64,000 bases of DNA, taken from NCBI GenBank assembly GCA_964628285.1, contig CAZVNP010000013.1:931-64930 (forward strand), written 5' to 3'. Numbering within the stretch: position 1 is the first letter of the stretch; the number at the start of each line of letters is the position of its first letter. Under the pieces are notes generated by a model. That model saw only the letters and a list, made by a program, of their open reading frames with translations, ran no database searches and had not been told where the DNA came from. The DNA is from an uncultured Lentimicrobiaceae bacterium (lineage in GTDB: Bacteria > Bacteroidota > Bacteroidia > Bacteroidales > JAGONC01). Shown piece after piece: positions 14,702 to 52,374 of this stretch. Both the position numbers and the translations under genes were made by a program.

Positions 14702-17050
14702 TCATATTGTAACGATCAGGTTAATATAAAAATTTCTTCCGGGTTCGTATAAATTAAGGCTTGAACCGATGATCCTCCTGTTCAGATGCTCATAATATAA
14801 CACATTAAAAATATTATTAACGCCTCCGTAAATCTGTAACATTGATTTAAACATATAGCTCACGCGTAAATCGGCCACGACAAAGCCCGGCGTCTTTTTT
14901 TCATAAAAAGCCTGTGAAACATAATTCTGCGGGGCGGTGACCCGTATGGCGGCGATGGGTATAAGCCTGGATCCAAACAATTTATAGCTGAAGGAAAGCG
15001 TGCTTTCAAAAGGGGGCACCTCTGCCAGAGGATCATGTCTGATCTCCTCCTCGCCGGTGATCTGGCTTTGGTCATCCAATACAAGCCTTGTCATTTTCGA
15101 TATGGTCGCCCTGGTATACGCGGCTGTCAAAGTGAATTCCCAGAGGCTCTCTGCCGGTGTTTTCATGCTGAACTCCATGCCGCGAAAAAGCACCGGCTCA
15201 ATATTCTGAAAACGTTTCACGCCCAACACCCCGTCGGATAATGGTTTTTGCTCGGCCGGAGGCACGATCACGCCGGTAATGAATCCGGTCACATAAGAAC
15301 AGAACAGGTTAAATTCAGCCGCACCGGCAAGGGGATGATTAAAGCGCACGGTCAGGTCTATTTCATTGTTCTTTTCCGGTTTAAGTTGGGGATTGCCCAG
15401 ATAATCAAAATTATCGTAGCCCACCGGAAGCAGGGTGATAAAGCGTTCTATCATGTCAGGGCTCCGGACACCCCTGCCGATCATGATTCCTGCCGAAAAA
15501 TAACGGCTGAGGTCATGGTACAGTCCCATGCTCACTCCCGGGTTAAGAAAGTCAGATGTATTATTCCTGCAGGAATAGATCACCTTATCCATCTTCCTGA
15601 TTTCAATATCATCCGAAGTGGCTTTGTTGTCATCCAACCGTGCCGATACGATCCATTCAACATGCTTATGTCTGCCGCGGTATTCGGCAAAGATGCCGGC
15701 ATTTTGGATGACCGCGTTGTTCCATATCTGTTCGACGTATACCGGGAGTGTGGGCTGCATGATAGCGCTTTTGGTACGCTGGCCGTCTTTTGAGATGTTG
15801 CGGTAATCCACGCCGAAGTAAACATCTTGATTTCCCGATTGCCAGTGGCTCTCAGCCCTTAATCCTGTGGTGGCTGACAGCACGTGGGTGACCGCTACCA
15901 TCGTATCGGAGATCGACCTGTTCTTGTTGTCCATCAAATGGTCCACATTAGTTTGGTAGAGTTTCACCTTCAGTGTTTTCCACGGGCTTGCAAGAATGTG
16001 CCATGTATAATCCAGTGATGTCAGGGAGGTGTTGTCTTCCCTCTCATCCATAGGCAGGGTCGGAAAAAGGATTCCCCTGCCATAGGAACGGTCATAGGAG
16101 AGAAGAAGCTCATGTTGACGGGCAACCTTCAATCCTAATTGTCCTGTCAGATTATATTTATGACTTTTTGCTTCAACGGTCTCCCCATTGCCTGCCTTAT
16201 AATCCTCATTCTTTTTGTCATTGGCAGAAAATCTGAAAAAGAGGGTACGATTGCCGCCTTCGACAGCCAGATGCTCTTTCCGGCCGGCGGGATTACCGGT
16301 ATATCCAAGATAAACCGTCGCATCTGCGGTAAAGGTCTCAAAGGGACGGGGTCTGATGGTCCTGATGTTGATCACGCCCCCGAGCGAAGAACCATAGCGC
16401 ATGGCATAAGGACCTTTGATCACTTCCAGCGACTCGATGTCTTCCGGTTCGATGTGTGACACGGCCGGATCCATACGGTTCGGGCATCCGCCTTCGATGG
16501 TCATGCCGTCATCTATCACGACCAGCAGCTGACTGTATTTGAATCCGCGGATGACAGGATCGATGTTGCATCCGCCCTTCCGGATGCCCGCTATATTGGG
16601 TAAGGTCCGCAAGTACTCCCCGACATCACTGAAGCCCGACTGCCTGACCTGTTTCTTTAATTCTATCTGTTTCAAATAAGGCAGATGCTCCGCCGCACCG
16701 TCACGGATCAGGGTGTCCCTGACCTCCACTCCCCTCAGGATATGGACAGCAGGGAACATCTCCAGTGTCATCACCCGATCTCTTCCCGGTTGTATTTGAA
16801 TTTTCCTGGTTATCTCATTGTATCCGAGATGCCGCAGATGCAAGACGTAACTCCCCGGCGGGATGCGGTCCAGTTTGAATGTACCCCATATGTCGGACAC
16901 TGTTCCTGCCGGATGTGTTTCTAAAGTGATCTCCACACCGGCCAAAGGCTGATGGGATTGTCCGTCCACCACATGACCTGTAAGGGATCCCGTTTCCTGA
17001 GCCAACGCCAGCAAAGGGAACAACAGAAAGACCAGTGTAACTAACTTCAT
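14702..17050 (-). CDS. TonB-dependent copper receptor (OprC-like) with N-terminal carboxypeptidase-regulatory-like domain
   Basis: GGCPNRMDP (CxxxM) in the plug and DHLMDN (HxM) in the barrel, matching the OprC copper-binding motif pair. C-terminal PGRNFYINL. Confidence 0.8.
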   Translation of the reverse strand: MKLVTLVFLLFPLLALAQETGSLTGHVVDGQSHQPLAGVEITLETHPAGTVSDIWGTFKLDRIPPGSYVLHLRHLGYNEITRKIQIQPGRDRVMTLEMFPAVHILRGVEVRDTLIRDGAAEHLPYLKQIELKKQVRQSGFSDVGEYLRTLPNIAGIRKGGCNIDPVIRGFKYSQLLVVIDDGMTIEGGCPNRMDPAVSHIEPEDIESLEVIKGPYAMRYGSSLGGVINIRTIRPRPFETFTADATVYLGYTGNPAGRKEHLAVEGGNRTLFFRFSANDKKNEDYKAGNGETVEAKSHKYNLTGQLGLKVARQHELLLSYDRSYGRGILFPTLPMDEREDNTSLTSLDYTWHILASPWKTLKVKLYQTNVDHLMDNKNRSISDTMVAVTHVLSATTGLRAESHWQSGNQDVYFGVDYRNISKDGQRTKSAIMQPTLPVYVEQIWNNAVIQNAGIFAEYRGRHKHVEWIVSARLDDNKATSDDIEIRKMDKVIYSCRNNTSDFLNPGVSMGLYHDLSRYFSAGIMIGRGVRSPDMIERFITLLPVGYDNFDYLGNPQLKPEKNNEIDLTVRFNHPLAGAAEFNLFCSYVTGFITGVIVPPAEQKPLSDGVLGVKRFQNIEPVLFRGMEFSMKTPAESLWEFTLTAAYTRATISKMTRLVLDDQSQITGEEEIRHDPLAEVPPFESTLSFSYKLFGSRLIPIAAIRVTAPQNYVSQAFYEKKTPGFVVADLRVSYMFKSMLQIYGGVNNIFNVLYYEHLNRRIIGSSLNLYEPGRNFYINLIVTI

Positions 17051-21404: not shown

Positions 21405-21625
21405 CAGCCCCCTACCCCACTCCTTCTCCTATGTTGGGGAAGGAATCAGGGGGATAGGGGCAAATCATTGAATGTTCGTTAATGTGTGTTGAAAATTGGG
21501 AAGAGAAAGGTTTTATTTAACCACGGAGGGACACTGGGGAAAAACGGAGGTTCACTGAGGATTAAAAAATTTATTTATTTTCCTCTGCGCCCTCTGGACC
21601 TCCTCTGTGCCCTCAGTGGTTAAAA
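21405..21625. repeat. Intact composite intergenic repeat: hairpin A (21405-21461) + segment B (21466-21528) + hairpin C (21516-21625)
   Basis: Hairpin A recurs at 34810-34867 and 46012-46069. Segment B recurs split at 46073-46094 and 49333-49391. Hairpin C arms are tttaaccacggagggacac and gtgccctcagtggttaaaa. Confidence 0.8.
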
Positions 21626-34883: not shown

Positions 34884-34951
34884 ATGGGACTCCATCCACA
34901 TGCATAGTAAAATCTTTTTTCCGTTATCCGTTTGAGTGGATGGAGTCCCAT
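34884..34951. repeat. Palindrome P, copy 1
   Basis: Perfect arms atgggactccatccac (34884-34899) and gtggatggagtcccat (34936-34951) with a 36-nt loop. Confidence 0.9.
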
Positions 34952-43750: not shown

Positions 43751-44021
43751 CGTGACGGATGTAAAAACGATTCACTGTTAAAACAACTCACTGCTGAAAA
43801 GGTTAATTCGTAGATTTGTGCATAAAAATAACTTTTTATTCAGGCTTTTGGGTGGTGTTGTTAATAAGTGCTAACATTTTTTAACATCCCGTCACGTAAA
43901 AACATGATGGAATTGATAATTTTCACAAATAAAACCGGGATCTTTGAAAATATTTTTATGTTTCACTTTTCTATACCTTTGCATCGTGTATTAAATAACG
44001 CTTTTTCGGGCATCAGATTGT

Positions 44022-45437
44022 ATGGAAGAGAATTTTGAGTTTTATAATAATGAGGAAGACATCATGACGGTCATTTACCGTTTTGAAAAGATGGTGGGGA
44101 CAGACAGTAATATTTTCTTCGACGTGGAGGATTTTGAGGCCATCATTGATTATTACCTCGGCAGGAATGACATGGAAAAAGCGGCATTAGCCATCGACCG
44201 TGCGCTGTCGCAGCATCCCGGCGCGGTCGTTTTCCTGCTGAAGAAAGTGCAATATTTTATCTCTTCCAACAATACCAAAAAAGCGCTACAGATGCTCGGT
44301 GAATTAGAAGACCTTGAACCTGACAATACGGAGATCCATATGACCAAAGGCTCTGTTTACAGCCAGCTTAAAAAGTACGACAAAGCCATTGAAGAATATC
44401 ATAAAGCCCTCGAAGACAGCGATGAACCGGAAGACATCTACACCAACATTGCCTTTGAGTACGAAAATCTCGGCAATTATCAGAAAGCCGTTGAATACCT
44501 GAGAAAAGTCGTCGAGAGTGATCCTGAAAATGAAACGGCCCTTTATGAGATCTCCTTTTGTTTTGAGATCACCAACCGTCCCGAGGAAAGCATTGATTTC
44601 TTCCGGCGGCATATTGACAAATTCCCCTATTCCAAGACGGCCTGGTTCAACCTGGGCATTGCTTACAACAACCTTGAGAAGTACGACAAAGCCATCCAGG
44701 CCTATGACTATGCCCTGGCCATCGATGAAACGTTCTCCTCGGCTTATTTCAACAAAGCCAACTCATATGCCAACCTTAAAGATTACAAACAGGCCATTAG
44801 CACATATGAAGAGACGTTCCGGTACGAACAGCCCGAGGCCATGACCTATTATTATATCGGCGAGTGTTATGAGAAGATGGAAGACTACCGCCGGGCCTTA
44901 CGCAGTTACAACGAAGCACTGCGTCTCGACGATGAGCTGGCCGACGCGTGGCTGGGCAAGGGGCTGGCCTACGACGTCATGAAACTGCCTGATAAAGCCA
45001 TCGATTGTGTCCAGAAAGCCGTCGACCTCAACCCCCTTAACACGGAATACTGGTATTTCCTCGGTGACATGCAGTATAAGTGCGGTCTCCTGAAAATGGC
45101 CCTTTTCTCATACCGTCAGGTGACGCAGCTCAACCCCGATGATCCCGACATATGGCTGGATTACTCCAACGTTTATTTCGAGATGGGCGACATCCGAAGC
45201 GCCATCAAAGTGCTCGAAGAAGGCATTGAGCTGCAACCCGACCATGCCGACATGCTGTACCGGCTGACCGTATACAAACATGTCTCAGGCAAGAGCAAAT
45301 CGGCTTACGAGCTGCTCGGCAAAGCCCTCAGGCTGAACTTCCAGAACCATAAACAACTGTTCAAATACTATCCGAAACTCAGGAATGATCCCCATATCAT
45401 CGAGATCATCGACCTGTACAAAGAAAGCGAAGAATGA
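44022..45437 (+). CDS. Tetratricopeptide repeat protein
   Basis: Many TPR units (AWFNLGIAY, AYFNKANSY, AWLGKG). Candidate -7 box TACCTTTG at 43974-43981. Confidence 0.9.
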   Translation: MEENFEFYNNEEDIMTVIYRFEKMVGTDSNIFFDVEDFEAIIDYYLGRNDMEKAALAIDRALSQHPGAVVFLLKKVQYFISSNNTKKALQMLGELEDLEPDNTEIHMTKGSVYSQLKKYDKAIEEYHKALEDSDEPEDIYTNIAFEYENLGNYQKAVEYLRKVVESDPENETALYEISFCFEITNRPEESIDFFRRHIDKFPYSKTAWFNLGIAYNNLEKYDKAIQAYDYALAIDETFSSAYFNKANSYANLKDYKQAISTYEETFRYEQPEAMTYYYIGECYEKMEDYRRALRSYNEALRLDDELADAWLGKGLAYDVMKLPDKAIDCVQKAVDLNPLNTEYWYFLGDMQYKCGLLKMALFSYRQVTQLNPDDPDIWLDYSNVYFEMGDIRSAIKVLEEGIELQPDHADMLYRLTVYKHVSGKSKSAYELLGKALRLNFQNHKQLFKYYPKLRNDPHIIEIIDLYKESEE

Positions 45438-45438
45438 C

Positions 45439-45960
45439 ATGAAAAAGACAGCTCTTGTTTACTGGCCGCGCAGAGGCAGCGTGGAAAAGAATGCCAGAAG
45501 GATCGCTGACCGTCTCGGACACGATCATGTCCATCTGATCCCGCTGAAAGATCTTGATCCTGATATGTTAAGAGATTATCCTGTCATCCTGTTCGGTTGT
45601 TCCACTGTGGGTGCCGACTCGTGGCGCAATGCCTGGACCGGCAACCAGTGGTTCAAGTTTTTCGTGAAGATGCATGATAAAAATACCGACCTGACAGGCA
45701 AAACGGCGGCCATCTTCGGTTTGGGCGACCAGATACTCTACCCTGCCGATTTTGTCAATGAGATCGCTGAGATCAGGAAAGAGCTCAAGTCGCGCGGAGC
45801 CACTGTCATAGGCAATTGGCCTGCAGAAGGGTATGAGAATACCGACAGCCAAGCCCTTGAGGGTGGCCATTTCATGGGTCTGGCCCTCGACGAGCACAAC
45901 CAATCCGAACTCAGCGAAGAGAGAATAAGCCGGTGGCTGGAGATGCTGAAGCAGGGATAG
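45439..45960 (+). CDS. Long-chain flavodoxin
   Basis: LFGCSTVG, AIFGLGDQILY, FMGLALDEHNQSELSEERI. Start set at ATG 45439. Confidence 0.85.
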   Translation: MKKTALVYWPRRGSVEKNARRIADRLGHDHVHLIPLKDLDPDMLRDYPVILFGCSTVGADSWRNAWTGNQWFKFFVKMHDKNTDLTGKTAAIFGLGDQILYPADFVNEIAEIRKELKSRGATVIGNWPAEGYENTDSQALEGGHFMGLALDEHNQSELSEERISRWLEMLKQG

Positions 45961-45963
45961 AAA

Positions 45964-46005
45964 GTTGCAGGTTACAGGTTGCGGGTTGCAAGTTGCGAGT
46001 TGCAA
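45964..46005. repeat. Heptamer tandem array (GTTGCAR-like)x6
   Basis: gttgcag gttacag gttgcgg gttgcaa gttgcga gttgcaa, directly before hairpin A. Confidence 0.85.
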
Positions 46006-46011
46006 GCTACG

Positions 46012-46069
46012 CAGCCCCCTACCCATCCCTTCCCCCAACATTGGGGAAGGGGTCAGGGGATAGGGGCTG
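46012..46069. repeat. Hairpin A, copy 3
   Basis: cagccccctacccatcccttcccccaacattggggaaggggtcaggggataggggctg. Confidence 0.85.
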
Positions 46070-46099
46070 AACATTGAATGTTCGTCAATGAGTGAAAAA

Positions 46100-46163
46100 G
46101 GGACTCCATCCACCTGCATGGTAAAATCTTTTTTCCGCTATCTGTTTGAGTGGATGGAGTCCC
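46100..46163. repeat. Palindrome P, copy 2
   Basis: gggactccatccac (46100-46113), 36-nt loop, gtggatggagtccc (46150-46163). Confidence 0.9.
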
Positions 46164-46572
46164 ATTCGAACTGATTCATAAAATTATATGTGAAATGAGT
46201 TGGATACCAATTGCTTGAATCATATAAACCGGACACGTCAAAATCCCTTAACCTGTTAATTTCATAAGTGTAGTTATAACTTACACATGCGGCAGGGCCA
46301 CAACTTGAATAAAGTTGCCGAAAAATCGGGTGCATGTATTTTTCCTCTGAATTGTCAATGACAAAAGGTAATGGGGTTTGAGAAGACACTGATGTAAGTT
46401 CCAGTTCCGGAATTTCATCCAGTTTGGCAATGTATTCAGGGGTGTAATCGGGGATTTTCCCAGCGATCCAGGGGTCACCATTCGGATCAGGATTTAAGTT
46501 CCTGACCTGAGCATGCGCCATCTTGAACATCGTCAAGGTTAAGAATGCTAAAAGAAAGTAAATGTTTTTCAT
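46138..46572 (-). pseudogene. Truncated papain-like (C1) cysteine peptidase, N-terminal fragment only
   Basis: Signal peptide, LPFVIDNS...PIFRQLYSSCG (Gln and catalytic Cys), YTYEIN, YPTHFTYNF. The last codons WDSIHSNR* are read from palindrome P. Confidence 0.7.
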
Positions 46573-46580
46573 AATGCAGT

Positions 46581-47831
46581 TTATTTAATGATCATTTTAC
46601 CTGAACATTTATTATTGTCATTAAATATTTCATAAAGATATACTCCCGGAACCAATCCTGTTGAATTGAACGGTATTCTGTTATTTGATAAAGAATTTCG
46701 TATTATTTTAGAACTTCTGACGATATCCCCTTTAAGATCAAATATATTTAAATATATTTGCCCGGAAGAATTCGTTTGCATAGAATAATAGATATATGTT
46801 TTACAGGAAAATGGATTGGGATAATTATAGGTAGCAGGTTGTTGAATGCTGATTTCCGGATCCGTTCCCACTGTTGGATTGATACTTCTATGAATTGTAT
46901 TTGTACTATATCCGCTTATTGTATAAATATATTCACCCGGAGTTAAGATTAATTCTTTCATATTATCTGTACCTAAGCCCGAGTCAAGAAGCTGCCAGTT
47001 ATTTCCATCATCATATGATACCAGAACACCTCCCTGACCACCAAAGTCATTTGAACGGCCGATATAGATTTCATCTTCCGAATTGATGACCATTGTCGTT
47101 ACAATGAGGCTGTCCTTTATCTGTACCCATTCTTGCTGATCTTTATTATATTTATAAATACCTGCTCCGGTCAGATTTAACAATTGATGTCCCTGTGCTC
47201 CGGCGAATAGTTCGTTGTTTGAATTAACCGCGAGTGATGAAACATATACATTGTGCAATCCGAAATACTCCCACGAGTCCCCGTGATCTAACGACCGGAA
47301 GGCTCCCTCACCACCCATAAAATTGGTTGCTCCTGCGTATAGAATACTGTCAGAGTCTTCAACGATTGAGAGAATAACAGCAGTTGTTGTTATAATTAAA
47401 GTTTGAGTCCAGGTTTCACCATTGCTAGCTGACTTATAAATGCCTCCCCAAGTTCCAGCATAAATGTTTCCATTTGAATCTTCATATAATATGGAGACTC
47501 CCATAGGCAAATAAAAAAGAAGGCTCCAATTGTTATTTTGATACTTATATATATATCTAACAGCCGAAAGAAATATTGTATCAGTCAATGTAATTAGAAT
47601 ATTACCCACTATAGTATCTGTTAAACCAATATTTTCCCACGAACCACAATTATCATAGGACACATAAATTCCGCTATTTGTTCCCAAATAAAAAATATTC
47701 TCTTCTATACTGGTAATAAAAGCCGGTGTCAAACCTTCCGGCCCATTCACAGGTTCCCAGAAATCCTGGGAAAAGGAAGGCTTGTTAATCAATACTGCAA
47801 ATAATAAAAGAAAACAGGTAATGAATTTCAT
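46581..47831 (-). CDS. T9SS-sorted Asp-box propeller protein
   Basis: Signal peptide ending SFS/Q, SxDxGxxW boxes, C-terminal NYPNPFS...GVYLYEI. Confidence 0.85.
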   Translation of the reverse strand: MKFITCFLLLFAVLINKPSFSQDFWEPVNGPEGLTPAFITSIEENIFYLGTNSGIYVSYDNCGSWENIGLTDTIVGNILITLTDTIFLSAVRYIYKYQNNNWSLLFYLPMGVSILYEDSNGNIYAGTWGGIYKSASNGETWTQTLIITTTAVILSIVEDSDSILYAGATNFMGGEGAFRSLDHGDSWEYFGLHNVYVSSLAVNSNNELFAGAQGHQLLNLTGAGIYKYNKDQQEWVQIKDSLIVTTMVINSEDEIYIGRSNDFGGQGGVLVSYDDGNNWQLLDSGLGTDNMKELILTPGEYIYTISGYSTNTIHRSINPTVGTDPEISIQQPATYNYPNPFSCKTYIYYSMQTNSSGQIYLNIFDLKGDIVRSSKIIRNSLSNNRIPFNSTGLVPGVYLYEIFNDNNKCSGKMIIK

Positions 47832-47916
47832 TGTGTATGCTATTATTTGATAGACTTAAAGATACAAATTATAAAAAACAAGGTTATAAAAATAAAAACT
47901 CCTTATAATCAGATTG

Positions 47917-49173
47917 TTATTTAATGATCATTTTACCTGAACATTTATAATTGTCACTGATTATTTCATAAAGATATACTCCCGGAGTCAATCCCGTTGA
48001 ATTAAACAGTATCCGGTTATTCGACAAAGAATTTTGAATGATCTTTTTACTCCTGACGATATCCCCGTTAAGATCAAATACATTTAAATATATTTGCCCG
48101 GAAGAATTCATTTGCATAGGATAATAGATATATGTTTTACCGGAAAACGGATTGGGATAATTATAGGTAACAGGTTGTTGAACTTTGATTTCCGGACTGA
48201 TTCCTACTGTAGAATTAACACTTCTATGGATCGTATTCGAACTGAATCCGCTTATGGTATAAATATGTTCATCAGGCGTCAGGGTTAATTGTTTCATGTT
48301 GTCCGTTCCTAAACCCGAGTCAAGAAGCTGCCAGTTATAGCCGTCATCATAGGATACAAGTACGCATCCCTGCCCGCCAAAATCATTTGAACGACCAATA
48401 TATATCTCATCTTCGGAATTGATGACCATTGTCGACACGATGAGGCTATCCTTTATCTGTATCCATTCCTGCTGATCTTTATCATATTTATACACACCGG
48501 CTCCGGTCAGGTTTAACAGTTGATGTCCCTGTGCCCCGGCAAACAGTTCGTTGATTGAATTAACCGCAAGGGATGACACATATACGTTATGCAATCCGAA
48601 GTACTCCCACGTATCACCGTGATCCAAGGACCGGAAGGCGCCTTCACCTCCCATGTAATTGGTCGCTCCGGCATAAAGAATTCCGTCATGGTCTTCAACG
48701 ATTGAAAAAACTGCAGCAGTTGTGGTTATTGTTAGAGTTTGAATCCAATTTTCGCCAAAATCTAATGATTTGAAGATCCCTCCCCAAGTTCCGGCAAATA
48801 AATTATTATCAGTATCAGAAAATAAAATTAAAATATTATCTGAAGTAAGAACCTTTGTCCAAAATCCATTATTGTATTTATAAATTCCACTTCCAATACT
48901 CATCACACCAGCAAAAATTATATTTTGAAAAGGTAAAACTGAGATAACAGCCATATCGCTAAGCCCAAGATTTTGCCATGAAGTACAACTATCATAAGAA
49001 ATGTAAACTCCATTATTTGACCCTAAATTAAATACGTTATCTGCTGAAATATTAATATATGCTGGGGAAGCATCTGATGGACTATTAACTATTTCCCAGA
49101 AATCCTGGGAAAAGGAAGGATTAGTAATCAATGCAAGTAATGACAACAAAATGTAACAGGCTATATTTTTCAT
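47917..49173 (-). CDS. T9SS-sorted Asp-box propeller protein, close paralog of 46581-47831
   Basis: True start MKNIACY at 49173; the track's MDGVPF extension is read from palindrome P. The C-terminal two-thirds are nearly identical to the neighbour. Confidence 0.85.
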   Translation of the reverse strand: MKNIACYILLSLLALITNPSFSQDFWEIVNSPSDASPAYINISADNVFNLGSNNGVYISYDSCTSWQNLGLSDMAVISVLPFQNIIFAGVMSIGSGIYKYNNGFWTKVLTSDNILILFSDTDNNLFAGTWGGIFKSLDFGENWIQTLTITTTAAVFSIVEDHDGILYAGATNYMGGEGAFRSLDHGDTWEYFGLHNVYVSSLAVNSINELFAGAQGHQLLNLTGAGVYKYDKDQQEWIQIKDSLIVSTMVINSEDEIYIGRSNDFGGQGCVLVSYDDGYNWQLLDSGLGTDNMKQLTLTPDEHIYTISGFSSNTIHRSVNSTVGISPEIKVQQPVTYNYPNPFSGKTYIYYPMQMNSSGQIYLNVFDLNGDIVRSKKIIQNSLSNNRILFNSTGLTPGVYLYEIISDNYKCSGKMIIK

Positions 49174-49261
49174 TATATAGATATTTATTTGGTTGGTTGG
49201 GCTAAAAGTACAAATTTCTATGGTCAGATGCAAGAAATGTTTATAACTGGATAATGAAAAA

Positions 49262-49327
49262 GGGACTCCATCCACCTGGGTAATAGAATCCTTTTTCAGT
49301 TATTCGTATTTGAGTGGATGGAGTCCC
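49262..49327. repeat. Palindrome P, copy 3
   Basis: gggactccatccac (49262-49275), 38-nt loop, gtggatggagtccc (49314-49327). Confidence 0.9.
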
Positions 49328-49332
49328 AACCG

Positions 49333-49391
49333 GAATGTTCGTCAATGAGTGTTGAAAATTGGAAAGAGAGAGGTTTTGTTTAACCACGGAG
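49333..49391. repeat. Segment B, right part of the split composite repeat
   Basis: 49352-49391 matches 21489-21528 at 37/40 positions. Confidence 0.85.
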
Positions 49392-49457
49392 TTATACCGT
49401 TAATTTTTATTCCCCATTGCCAAATGGCATAAACGTAGGAGAAGGGACTTCCATTGA

Positions 49458-49513
49458 AAACCTGCAGATCCATTGACCCGAAGACCTGTAGACCTGAAGA
49501 CCTGTAGACCTTA
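49458..49513. repeat. Octamer tandem array (AGACCTGW-like)x7, left units degenerate
   Basis: agacctgt agacctga agacctgt agacctta, preceded by three degenerate units. Confidence 0.75.
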
Positions 49514-49530
49514 AACTGATGGTTGCCGAC

Positions 49531-51778
<2,248 letters not shown>

Positions 51779-51783
51779 ATGCT

Positions 51784-52374
51784 CTATACCGTCAGCAGAC
51801 GGCTTTTGAGTATCTTTTGTGAAGACTTGGAAAGGTTCTCCTCATCCTCGAGAAAACGTTTTATCTTTCTGATGGCCTCCTGATACCCCGGTATCTGAAC
51901 CTTCTCATAAAGGTTGACCTTCTGCGTTGTTTTCCTTCTGGCTTTATCGAGGAGTCTCATTTTTAACAGGAAAACCTCCTGCTCGATGCCGATGGCAGCG
52001 AGCTCCTTCAATATATCGATCCCGTCGGGAAACCATGAAGGGATGCCAAAGAGGCTGAATTTCTTCACTGAGAAATCAATACCTTTAAACACAGGGGTCT
52101 TGACGCCGGCAATTTTTTTCACGTCCAGTTTGACATCCTCCACTTTGATAAGGGTGGCATCGAATTCGCCCCATAAACTGACCATATCGTCGTAACGGTG
52201 CATCTTCTCCAGCAGCCTTTCTTCCAGTGAAGCGGCCGTATCCTTTGCTTTCTTTACCTCCATGCGCAGCGCCGTCTCCTTGTTCTTGATCGTCGGCAGC
52301 GCCCGTTCACGGATGGCCAGCTGCTTGTTCATCTCCTGAAGCGAGATTTTATTGTATTGAAATTTTATGGGCAC
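51784..52374 (-). CDS. ntpD: V-type ATPase subunit D
   Basis: RALPTIKNKE, KTTQKVNLYEKVQIP. Confidence 0.92.
   Translation of the reverse strand: MPIKFQYNKISLQEMNKQLAIRERALPTIKNKETALRMEVKKAKDTAASLEERLLEKMHRYDDMVSLWGEFDATLIKVEDVKLDVKKIAGVKTPVFKGIDFSVKKFSLFGIPSWFPDGIDILKELAAIGIEQEVFLLKMRLLDKARRKTTQKVNLYEKVQIPGYQEAIRKIKRFLEDEENLSKSSQKILKSRLLTV

Follow-up and report, generated by a model that had tools for sequence, protein, structure and literature searches.

A T9SS Operon Copy Bracketed by Short Intergenic Repeats in an Uncultured Freshwater-Sediment Bacteroidota

Introduction

Intergenic arrays in Neisseria combine several short repeat types, including units of about 20 bp with inverted ends, and hairpin MITEs known as Correia elements lie within the same arrays and carry transcription signals (PMC3898611). 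The NIME/dRS3 arrays are found beside surface-protein genes, and identical 20-bp dRS3 copies flank pilC1 as a proposed site of integration or deletion (PMC3898611). Whole-gene cassettes, referred to as 'minimal mobile elements', are furthermore exchanged between conserved flanks by homologous recombination (PMC3898611). The genome studied here likewise has mosaic arrays of recurring short modules that are associated with secreted-protein (T9SS) genes, although it belongs to another phylum, the repeat sequences are unrelated and the copies number tens, compared with hundreds for NIME.

Xer-dependent dif modules (IMEX) are enzyme-free, bounded by short recombination sites and moved by host XerC/XerD; most known examples come from Acinetobacter plasmids. 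Precedents for passenger genes carried between short elements are MIC231 of Bacillus cereus and the MITE-flanked integron mobilisation units; MIC231-type elements make short target duplications of fixed length and have ends that match a known IS. We know of no REPINs that bracket and carry multi-gene units.

The window analyzed here is a 64,000-nt stretch of DNA from an uncultured freshwater-sediment Bacteroidota with a genome rich in mosaic intergenic repeats. Between the flavodoxin gene and ntpK it contains a 3.2-kb block of secreted-protein genes, placed inside a bracket made of a hairpin repeat and a 19-base module.

The Split Composite Between Flavodoxin and ntpK

An uninterrupted copy of the mosaic repeat can be read directly at 21405–21528 (plus strand). 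It runs without a break from hairpin A through the 19-nt module H with two mismatches (gaatgttcgttaatgtgtg) into module B and the start of hairpin C (ttgaaaattgg...aaccacggag). This copy may be regarded as the 'empty' form of the composite. At 46–49 kb the composite is split, with A-H to the left and H-B-C to the right, and on rereading all the sequence claims of an earlier sequence-only reading hold (the 19-mer copies, the palindrome just inside each, the composite at 21.4 kb and the gene content). The left half, on the plus strand, consists of hairpin A (46012–46069; fold of −40 kcal/mol, z = −4.75), an 'aacatt' spacer (46070–46075) and the left H copy, GAATGTTCGTCAATGAGTG (46076–46094), which contains CATTGA-N7-TCAATG. 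Further copies of the hairpin A family are located at C9, C10, C13:22400, C13:35816, and C106. The right half, also on the plus strand, begins exactly at the first base of an identical H copy (49333–49351), which is followed by module B and a truncated hairpin C start (49352–49391) with 37/40 positions identical to 21489–21528.

Inside the two H copies lies the palindrome P, with the general form GGGACTCCATCCAC-loop-GTGGATGGAGTCCC (arms and loop at 46100–46163 and 49262–49327). P1 (46095–46170, plus strand) has a (G)AAAAA flank, 14-bp arms at 46100–46113 and 46150–46163, a 36-nt type-1 loop and an ATTCGAA flank, and on the minus strand it reads as a 15-bp stem followed by UUUUU. The last G of the left H can equally well be assigned to the GAAAAA flank of P1. 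P2 (49255–49332, plus strand) has a TGAAAAA flank, arms at 49262–49275 and 49314–49327, a 38-nt type-2 loop and an AACCG flank, and is 84% identical to P1 in the same orientation. A third P (34886–34949, plus strand) follows hairpin A and a shortened H (gatcattggatgt) without a second P; the 3′ end of a T9SS gene (408 aa) lies 36 bp away. This P, taken together with its flank and the 3′ end of the gene, shares 87% identity (406 nt) with the left end of the operon copy that carries an 1130-aa T9SS gene (cassette 2).

The insert genes encode two BNR/propeller proteins with Por_Secre_tail domains and a 144-aa N-terminal fragment; none of them is a transposase or recombinase gene. CargoA (46581–47831, minus strand, 416 aa; Pfam PF18962 and Reg_prop/BNR) and cargoB (47917–49173, minus strand, 418 aa) both have the T9SS C-terminal sorting domain and are 71% identical. 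Homologs of cargoB (52–61% identity) are found in other Bacteroidota in ordinary chromosomal contexts. Upstream of cargoB is a promoter and 5′ leader tract (49174–49254, minus strand) common to the paralogous operon copies. The tract and the first ∼16 codons of cargoB (to ∼49088) are 93% identical to variant ii of cassette 2 and 83% identical to the C88 copy, and contig C66 overlaps 49224–49278 of the window in the k=55 assembly graph.

The 144-aa ORF (46138–46572, minus strand), earlier labeled papain-like, has no Pfam match and is the 5′ remnant of a large T9SS protein gene that breaks off at codon ∼134, on the border of the P1 flank. Homology to the full-length paralogs stops at ∼46171, the outer edge of the 7-bp flank of P1, and the last ∼10 codons and the stop are supplied by P1 and its flank. 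The remnant shares 81% nucleotide identity with the 5′ end of the 1130-aa gene of cassette 2, 56% aa identity (residues 1–134) with a C88 protein of at least 777 aa, and 47% identity with a 307-aa protein beside a cargo homolog in GCA_030631045.1. The left end of the insert cuts the large T9SS gene. What the sequence-only reading described as an enzyme-free cassette is a paralogous operon copy in decay, not a designed cassette. The segment at 46–49 kb is one of three or more paralogous copies of this T9SS operon dispersed in the genome, in which the BNR-propeller cargo gene(s) are followed by the large T9SS protein gene. In the distant Bacteroidota GCA_034679125.1 and GCA_030631045.1 the operon is present without these repeats. 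The insert is AT-rich as first described (29–44% GC, with flanks of 50–60%), and such islands are common, 219 low-GC islands making up 14% of the genome.

The H Module and the P Hairpin

H is a 19-nt module of a BIME/NIME-like mosaic intergenic repeat in which the modules A, H, B, C, P and heptamer arrays occur in varying orders at 20 or more sites. The 3.35-Mb MAG contains four exact copies of H and ∼16 copies with up to three mismatches. The first base of H is a natural module boundary, as seen in the copy at C11:38119, and its 6-7-6 inverted repeat, CATTGA-N7-TCAATG, resembles a tyrosine-recombinase core in shape. In its exact form the 19-mer represents the family consensus and is also found at C16 and C39. 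The 19/19 identity of the two H copies around the insert is far above random expectation, yet it is no evidence in itself for a target duplication, given that this dispersed family has just this consensus. Six of 15 H copies lie within 600 bp of a T9SS-CTD ORF (16% for random positions), and composites are commonly found downstream of T9SS operons.

P is present in ∼15 copies of 64–78 bp with 14-bp arms and spacers of 36–43 nt. The arms GGGACTCCATCCAC and GTGGATGGAGTCCC are found in all strong copies, the arm starts with GGGACTCC, and the flanks are GAAAAA and ATYCRRA. The arms are either invariant or have paired changes (A>G with T>C in C66:145 and C17:15272, and a re-paired arm variant in C44:25521), and the loops vary while the stem is preserved, which points to a maintained hairpin. 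The 15-bp stem (−32 kcal/mol, z about −4 to −5) is followed by U5 on the minus strand. P is a species-specific hairpin with the shape of an intrinsic terminator on the operon strand, and resembles a REPIN or MITE. It was absent from 185k other species representatives, the same-genus genome and viral contigs. P1 matches the copy in C88 without a difference over 74 bp, and the copy in C9 at 99% identity.

Two subtypes of P could be distinguished. P adjoins H-type sequence at five or more positions, with its placement relative to H being after base 6, after base 18/19, before base 1 or 16 nt upstream. The expected association of P with accessory genes was seen in part, as 10/15 copies are found within 600 bp of a T9SS gene (8/15 in the MAG and two via contig L048; 16% for random positions), counts that are not fully independent because the P copies beside T9SS genes are partly paralogous; but many solo copies are located at the 3′ ends of unrelated genes. 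No target duplication was found around the solo copies in C18, C44, C88, and C9.

Like a REPIN, P is an inverted doublet of ∼14–21 nt with a spacer, forms a hairpin, and is extragenic and often placed at gene 3′ ends. The stem-preserving paired changes and the surrounding BIME-like mosaics are also REP/BIME-like. There are, however, only ∼15 copies of P, and it lacks the tetranucleotide end tag of REP sequences, GTAG or CGTC (PMC3733652). As an imperfect palindrome of 60–70 bp with conserved ends and a variable center that separates gene units, P is also similar to attC, but it differs in occurring alone beside unrelated genes and, as the sequence-only reading correctly stated, in lacking the RYYYAAC/GTTRRRY ends.

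A Second Bracketed Operon

An A-H-P...P-H bracket around the same operon type, not reported before, appears at a second locus, which we reconstructed by joining the MAG contigs C16 and C66 via public contigs. The order at this locus is methyltransferase, A-right-aacatt-H-aaaaa-P, T9SS1130, cargo425, promoter, P-(16 nt)-H′-P′, adh, with a methyltransferase and an alcohol dehydrogenase as flanking genes. The gene truncated in the window has its full-length homolog in T9SS1130. At the left junction (H|aaaaa-P) the two loci agree in every base, and the left ends are ∼97% identical over 113 bp and only ∼74% further out in hairpin A. The right junctions differ, with P-aaccg-19mer in the window and P-attcaaattgatcatt-19mer′ at the second locus, i.e., P-to-H gaps of 5 and 16 nt, and the flanking direct repeat is therefore 19 bp in the window and ∼27 bp (25/27) at the second locus. 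A single fixed staggered cut, or a single precise core site, would not give this pattern. The suggestion that the 19-bp duplication is more like an att core is weakened: the 19-mer is a family consensus, and the repeat has another length here.

A tandem P-unit-P-unit-P array is probably present at the second locus. The L048 contig path and the beginning of L044 coincide over 683 nt at 100% identity, the two units differ by four SNPs in 4.7 kb and a swapped 130-nt promoter tract, and the k-mer depth of a unitig specific to T9SS1130 is about two times the baseline. Alternatively, the array could be a strain chimera joined at P. The third operon copy, at the C88 locus, carries a single P, and its composite is uninterrupted. 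Whole P elements with their flanks are ∼97% identical between loci whose proteins are only ∼35% identical, and this patchwork, with high identity in P and the leader/promoter tract and low identity in the proteins, is the product expected of gene conversion. The window locus and the second locus share ancestry.

Recombinase Genes in the MAG

A PF00589 profile search of the MAG gave four hits, and the two full-length proteins among them are XerD (355 bits with the XerD model; cut-off 329.6) and XerC-like. No integron integrase was found in the MAG, where the models (including TIGR02249) reach 138 and 107 bits with a cut-off of 265. Three Y1_Tnp genes are present, one of IS200 type and two with weak RAYT similarity (40 and 35 bits; cut-off 80). 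There is no P in the visible flanks of the three genes, two of which sit at contig ends, and the sequence preceding the Y1 gene in C54 resembles module C and not P. A recombinase gene near other P copies, which the sequence-only reading proposed to look for, was likewise not seen, with no member of the Y1 and tyrosine-recombinase families adjoining P in the MAG, where no transposase-like ORF has a P arm beside it. As the MAG consists of 135 contigs and some P-linked contigs are unbinned, an enzyme gene could have escaped the search.

The presence of Y1 (IS200/RAYT-like) transposases is as in REPIN-RAYT systems, but a single-copy RAYT flanked by its own REP was not found in the sequence visible around the three Y1 genes. 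The second locus resembles an integron array in its P-unit-P-unit-P order and in units that encode no recombinase; in contrast to integrons, the MAG has no IntI (best hits XerD/XerC) and no attI platform. Integron cassettes are mostly promoterless with a single ORF, whereas the units here have 2–3 genes and a conserved promoter/leader just inside P. No full tyrosine recombinases other than XerD and the XerC-like protein were found, and H has an inverted repeat with a 7-nt spacer, as might suit a dif module; sites of the dif type have the layout 11-6-11. With regard to a tyrosine-integrase island, the direct 19-bp repeats are present and the insert has no integrase gene; neither a circle nor an empty joint was seen in the Logan contigs from seven runs, whose k=31 unitigs may miss rare forms.

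Origin of the Bracketed Operon

Flavodoxin and ntpK are 24 bp apart in a sister-genus genome, and aroE occupies the site instead of the operon in a same-genus species, which indicates that the operon arrived here. Locus content differs only in genus- and family-level genomes, and intermediate relatives were sought but none was found. All compared contigs represent one population with at least 99.85% identity. No empty allele, circle junction or depth difference was found in seven metagenome runs or ∼20 contigs, and the predicted excised circle (P3-P2 junction) or restored empty site was thus not recovered from the seven runs; this search used Logan contigs, whose k=31 unitigs may miss rare circle or empty-site forms.

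As the same bracket surrounds a second operon copy, the short repeats probably move or copy these genes. With middling confidence, we attribute the spread and reshaping of the operon to host recombination between short repeats, much as in the Neisseria NIME/dRS3 arrays. The operon may have looped out via H × H or P × P and re-entered at another H-bearing mosaic, which would leave the composite split as A-H-[P...P]-H-B-C. The tandem P-unit-P-unit-P array would result from unequal crossing-over at P, gene conversion would homogenize the anchors (P, promoter, and signal peptide at the 5′ side; CTD and P at the 3′ side), and the large T9SS protein gene would have lost most of its length to a deletion ending at the hairpin edge. 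We infer this route and the absence of a dedicated enzyme; no circle intermediates or polymorphism proving any route were seen in the seven runs and ∼20 contigs. Against host recombination, homologies of 19–27 bp are at or below the efficient length for RecA-type recombination, and a base-identical left junction at two loci is the product expected of a site-specific event. The shape of CATTGA-N7-TCAATG in H also speaks against it. In contrast to NIME, there is no known phage integrase acting on H or P, and the genes carried belong to a T9SS operon family.

A dedicated non-autonomous cassette system, in which P-bounded T9SS units are cut out as circles and inserted 3′ of the H core, seems to us unlikely. 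Its enzyme would be encoded elsewhere, either XerC/D as for dif modules or a Y1/HUH protein acting on the P hairpins, and every integration would duplicate H. The bracket at two loci with its identical left junction, the precise split relative to the 21.4-kb copy, the array-like P-unit-P-unit-P, the inverted repeat in H, the enrichment of P beside T9SS genes, and the presence of XerC, XerD and three Y1 transposases in the genome all agree with it. The sequence-only idea of a cassette moving into a repeat-defined site gains from the recurrence of the bracket, but loses by the differing right junctions (5 and 16 nt; repeats of 19 and ∼27 bp) and by the decayed state of the insert, with its gene truncated at the left end. 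In the third operon copy the composite is intact and P occurs only once, the two bracketed loci are not independent events because they share ancestry, no circle, empty site or presence/absence polymorphism was found in the seven runs and ∼20 contigs, and neither an integron integrase nor an enzyme adjoining any P was found. If true, H and P would constitute a previously undescribed non-autonomous cassette system of Bacteroidota that builds arrays and seeds new loci.

It is similarly doubtful that no genes moved, i.e., that the operon copies are old residents and P, as a MITE/REPIN-like element, landed independently on both sides with a preference for H-type heptamer arrays. The 19/19 identity would then merely reflect the family consensus, which agrees with the exact copies at C16 and C39. 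The module boundary at the first base of H, the five or more P positions at H-type sequence, the two P subtypes, the many solo P copies and the composites commonly lying downstream of T9SS operons fit as well. Old residence is at odds with the 24-bp gap in the sister genus and aroE in the same-genus species, and the left (A+H) and right (H+B+C) composites are exactly complementary halves. The bracket moreover recurs at the second locus, with its ∼97% identity over 113 bp at the left and ∼74% further out, and the low GC content suggests accessory DNA.

Quite improbable is a composite transposon or mobile insertion cassette, where a transposase acting in trans reads the 14-bp P arms as terminal inverted repeats and moves single P copies and P-cargo-P units alike. 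The outer arms of P1 and P2 are mutually inverted, P is young, species-specific and dispersed, and, as in the MIC231 and MITE-flanked precedents, passenger genes without a transposase lie between two short non-autonomous elements with inverted outer ends. The flanking repeats of 19 and ∼27 bp are unequal and outside the usual DDE range, however, and solo P copies have no target-site duplication. A search covering the Y1 and tyrosine-recombinase families gave neither a matching IS nor a transposase gene whose ends resemble P, and no P is visible beside any of the three Y1 genes.

A repeat-induced misjoin at the 19-mer/P repeat can be dismissed almost entirely, since about ten independent public assemblies have the identical structure: the left junction does lie in a ∼113-bp repeat shared with C16 where k=31 unitigs break, but both junctions are crossed in identical form by independent assemblies (MEGAHIT k141 and JGI) of different samples, the flavodoxin unitig always continues into the 19-mer and 'aa' towards P, and insert depth equals flank depth. 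The duplication, which the sequence-only reading had put up for this test, recurs in both the MEGAHIT and JGI assemblies. Ten contigs (ENA MEGAHIT k141, JGI, and Logan) match their own covered part of 44000–52000 at ≥99.85%. Four of them end inside the insert or at its left edge, and the filled arrangement is seen from end to end in five fully spanning contigs and in a sixth that reaches into ntpK.

An interrupted copy of a mosaic repeat

The 3.2-kb T9SS insert lies between a flavodoxin gene and ntpK (ATP-synt_C) and splits a composite repeat whose uninterrupted form is found in the same window at 21405-21528, where hairpin A is followed by gaatgttcgttaatgtgtg and ttgaaaattgg...aaccacggag. On the 46-kb side, hairpin A (46012-69) and 'aacatt' lead into the 19-nt module H, GAATGTTCGTCAATGAGTG (46076-94), and then, after 'aaaaa', into the left copy of the palindrome P (P1, 46100-163; GGGACTCCATCCAC, 36 nt, GTGGATGGAGTCCC). 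The order on the 49-kb side is the right copy (P2, 49262-327), 'aaccg', the identical 19-mer (49333-51) and the ttgaaaattgg...aaccacggag segment, which is identical to the 21.4-kb copy at 37 of 40 positions. Direct reading of the window thus bears out the layout of split and uninterrupted composites described in the sequence-only reading. The GC content is 29-44% within the insert vs 50-60% in the flanks. The minus strand of the insert encodes two BNR/propeller proteins with Por_Secre_tail domains (mutually 71% identical) and a 144-aa N-terminal ORF, and no recombinase genes were found inside the 3.2 kb.

A repeat census of the whole MAG (3.35 Mb, 135 contigs) identified four exact copies of H and about 16 with up to three mismatches. 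H usually comes after hairpin A or degenerate 'cattgaa' heptamer arrays and is itself usually followed by TTGAAAATTG(G.AAGAGA...TTTAACCACGGAGG); it belongs to a mosaic intergenic repeat as one of its modules. The exact 19-mer is the family consensus, with other exact copies at C16:55640 and C39:4238, and the first base of H is also a module boundary at C11:38119. Elsewhere the exact 19-mer has three matches in unrelated phyla, roughly the chance expectation for 596 Gb. P adjoins H-type sequence at several different positions.

Degenerate heptamer arrays flank the bracket on both sides (ttgcagg/ttgcgag at 45960-46010 on the left, cctgtag/acctgaa at 49460-49515 on the right). These arrays outside the bracket recur at many loci and are a source of spurious 'skip' joints in contig mapping. 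The stretch 'gagaagggacttccattgaaaacctgcag' at 49440-49470 looks like the left arm of P and the start of its loop (gaaaaagggactccatccacctgca) with the right arm absent, and may be a relic half-P between a truncated module C and ntpK.

P has the shape of a terminator

About 15 copies of P occur in the MAG. Their 14-bp arms are either invariant or altered on both sides together, and their loops are of two related types, with some divergent ones besides. On the minus strand, P1 and P2 each fold into a stem of 15 bp (-32 kcal/mol, z -4 to -5) with UUUUU after it. This predicted fold has the shape of a terminator, which would serve the cargo operon in the case of P1 and the upstream ntp operon in the case of P2, and P lends itself to direct tests as a candidate for a portable terminator or insulator. 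P escapes a simple terminator scan, as its loop is longer than 8 nt.

A T9SS-CTD ORF lies within 600 bp of 8 of the 15 MAG copies, and of two more via public contigs, compared with 16% for random positions. Other copies are solitary and lie where unrelated genes end (3'), and no target duplication was seen around the solo copies. P was absent from same-genus and family genomes, 185k species representatives and viral contigs, and an Rfam search of window 45900-49600 gave no match. The idea that AT-richness marks P-bounded DNA was rejected, as P touches only 5 of 219 low-GC islands.

The cargo is a decayed operon copy

Sequence comparison identifies the cargo of the insert as a decayed copy of an operon with paralogs elsewhere in the MAG. 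The 144-aa ORF corresponds to the 5' end of a gene for a large T9SS protein: residues 1-134 are 56% identical to a protein of at least 777 aa on C88, and the ORF shares 81% nucleotide identity with the start of a 1130-aa T9SS gene. The homology ends at ~46171, the outer edge of the 7-bp flank of P1, and the final codons and stop come from P1 and this flank.

The C88 locus (longer in the public contigs L038-L041) contains mutS, P, the same promoter tract, cargo424, the large T9SS gene and an inverted, uninterrupted C-B-H''-A, with one P and no duplication of H. Distant Bacteroidota have the same operon module in ordinary surroundings that contain none of A, H, B, C and P. It appears as cargo-cargo-Peptidase_C1 in GCA_034679125.1, and as cargo followed by a homolog of the 144-aa fragment in GCA_030631045.1.

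The MAG holds about 177 ORFs with a T9SS C-terminal domain, counted with a purpose-built HMM rather than a curated model, and these make up 11% of genome bases. For a genome of 3.35 Mb, such a cargo repertoire is unusually large. Two alternative promoter/first-codon tracts of ~70-130 nt (MKYITSY... and MKNIACY...) occur in shuffled fashion among cargo paralogs that are divergent in other respects (L048 11224-11320 vs 16090-16190; window 49174-49254; C88 3747-3830), and this shuffling suggests that P, promoter and signal peptide may form a portable unit. The mutS ORF upstream of the C88 operon (C88 745-3696 / L038-L041) varies by assembly (843, 946 or 953 aa) owing to a variable region of SRQSSVV-type repeats close to the N-terminus, immediately upstream of the P copy.

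A second bracketed locus

The public contigs L044 and L048 connect the MAG contigs C16 and C66 into a second bracketed locus (cassette 2). C16 stops 540 bp past a junction that is ~97% identical over 113 bp to the left junction in the window (A-right, aacatt, H, aaaaa, P). The first 55 bp of C66 are identical to window 49224-49278; with overlaps of k=55 in the MAG, this match marks a branch in the assembly graph rather than another variant of the locus in the window. In window orientation, cassette 2 reads methyltransferase(+), A-right-aacatt-H(exact)-aaaaa-P, T9SS1130(-), cargo425(-) and promoter, followed by P-attcaaattgatcatt-H'(18/19)-ttcaaat-P' and adh(-). With the natural left context included, the flanking direct repeat is about 27 bp (25/27).

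L048 runs from T9SS1130 via P into a second promoter and cargo425, and over 683 nt this stretch matches the beginning of L044 at 100%. Apart from a swapped 130-nt promoter/first-codon tract, 4 SNPs in 4.7 kb separate the two units, and the T9SS1130-specific Logan unitig has ~2x single-copy depth (20.1 vs ~12 in run X1, 22.3 vs ~9.3 in run X4). A tandem array P-unit-P-unit-P is therefore favoured over a strain chimera at P. Exact-protein look-ups of the cassette-2 genes returned one contig each, and hence no independent replicate of the array.

Mobility and history of the flavodoxin-ntpK site

Seven metagenome runs were analysed as Logan k=31 contigs. Insert depth equalled flank depth, and the flavodoxin unitig consistently continued into H and 'aa', towards P. 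An excised circle or a restored empty site, which the sequence-only reading had proposed to look for, did not appear: no joint of 46094 to 49352 (empty site) or of 49351 to 46095 (circle) was present in these contigs, and all joints found trace to other repeats (C66-like 46175>49333 +CATT; C9-like 49391>46092; heptamer arrays).

In the relative G006 the flavodoxin-ntpK gap is 24 bp. None of the fetched contigs of this species carries an empty site. The exact flavodoxin protein is found on 21 contigs, which derive from one population; ten were fetched, and those reaching the insert all have the filled form. A single metagenome scan for intermediate relatives gave only one 35%-identical relative. 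Between flavodoxin and ntpK, the same-genus genome G001 has aroE, and G007 has aroE followed by other genes. As the locus varies in this way at genus and family level, the operon did arrive at the site. No aroE-like shikimate dehydrogenase homolog was found anywhere in the 99.8%-complete MAG; relocation of aroE was thereby rejected, and the history of the site included loss or replacement rather than a clean insertion.

Origin of the bracketed loci

Identity between the loci is a patchwork: the leader/promoter and first ~16 codons are 93% identical and the CTD-stop-P-H tract 87-97%, with proteins at only about 35%. Such a pattern is what gene conversion leaves, together with ectopic recombination among short repeats, and unequal crossing-over at P would yield a P-unit-P-unit-P array. 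Because of the patchwork and the array we place host recombination among mosaic repeats first as the explanation of the operon copies, a reading for and against which we find the balance about even.

That a dedicated system moves the T9SS genes as a cassette into H sites with an enzyme encoded elsewhere, as first proposed, appears unlikely. The underlying observation is confirmed and the proposal is partly supported, in that the split composite and its recurrence at cassette 2 speak for insertion next to H. Several features are evidence against a single, precise reaction by a dedicated system: the right junctions differ (P-H gap of 5 vs 16 nt, repeats of 19 vs ~27 bp), P takes varied positions against H-type sequence, the third operon copy has a single P, a gene is cut at the edge of the P1 flank, and the two bracketed loci share ancestry rather than represent independent events. 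The only full-length tyrosine recombinases in the MAG are XerD and a XerC-like protein. Independent landing of P around resident operons, to be set beside the solo copies of P on one side and the split composite on the other, is no more probable than a dedicated system.

Mobilisation in trans of P...P composites is very improbable. The MAG has three genes for Y1 transposases (C13:65321-65665, C5:99653-100015 and C54:7711-8049); one of the three is of IS200 type, and the other two show weak RAYT similarity. The C13 gene is on the same contig ~400 bp past the right end of the window and about 15 kb right of the insert, and no P lies in the visible flanks of any of the three. The C54 gene is preceded by 'tttatttcatcccacggagggtcac', similar to module C (tttatttaaccacggaggg) of the mosaic repeat, and cacggagg-type hairpins may therefore be its REP partners.

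An assembly artefact, finally, is ruled out by ten fetched contigs from independent assemblies (ENA MEGAHIT k141, JGI, Logan; different samples) that match the covered part of window 44000-52000 at ≥99.85%, six of them containing the filled form end to end (five span all 8 kb and the sixth enters ntpK) and four ending within the insert or at its left edge.

Comparison with known repeat systems

The closest systems in behaviour are the NIME/dRS3 arrays, Correia elements and minimal mobile elements of Neisseria, in which mosaic arrays adjoin genes for surface proteins. There, pilC1 lies between identical 20-bp repeats, a site proposed for integration or deletion, and cassettes are swapped by homologous recombination (PMC3898611). 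For the integron, the DDE-composite and the integrative island, at least one tested defining feature is missing here; the integron was rejected, as the MAG has no integron integrase (IntI) and P no attC consensus. The present case is one of flux of secreted-protein genes associated with mosaic repeats; the genome is that of a T9SS-rich member of the Bacteroidota and carries a hairpin element specific to the species.

The repertoires of T9SS cargo are large and show rapid turnover, and the origin of new cargo loci is poorly understood. The recurrent architecture of mosaic repeat, hairpin element, operon, hairpin element and mosaic repeat ties species-specific short repeats to operon duplication or relocation, swapping of promoter tracts and decay, as in the truncated gene. 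If host recombination alone is responsible, this would be a Bacteroidota counterpart of the NIME and minimal-mobile-element phenomena of Neisseria; should there be a dedicated enzyme, genes for secreted proteins would have a new cassette system.

In form, P is nearest to REPINs (PMC3337134, PMC3116915), but differs from them in having neither RAYT linkage nor a GTAG tag. A different hairpin repeat, with four copies of (a)gcccacgacttaagtcgtgggct, occupies the ntpK-aroE spacer of G001 (L002 530-690), and each species therefore seems to have an extragenic palindrome family of its own.
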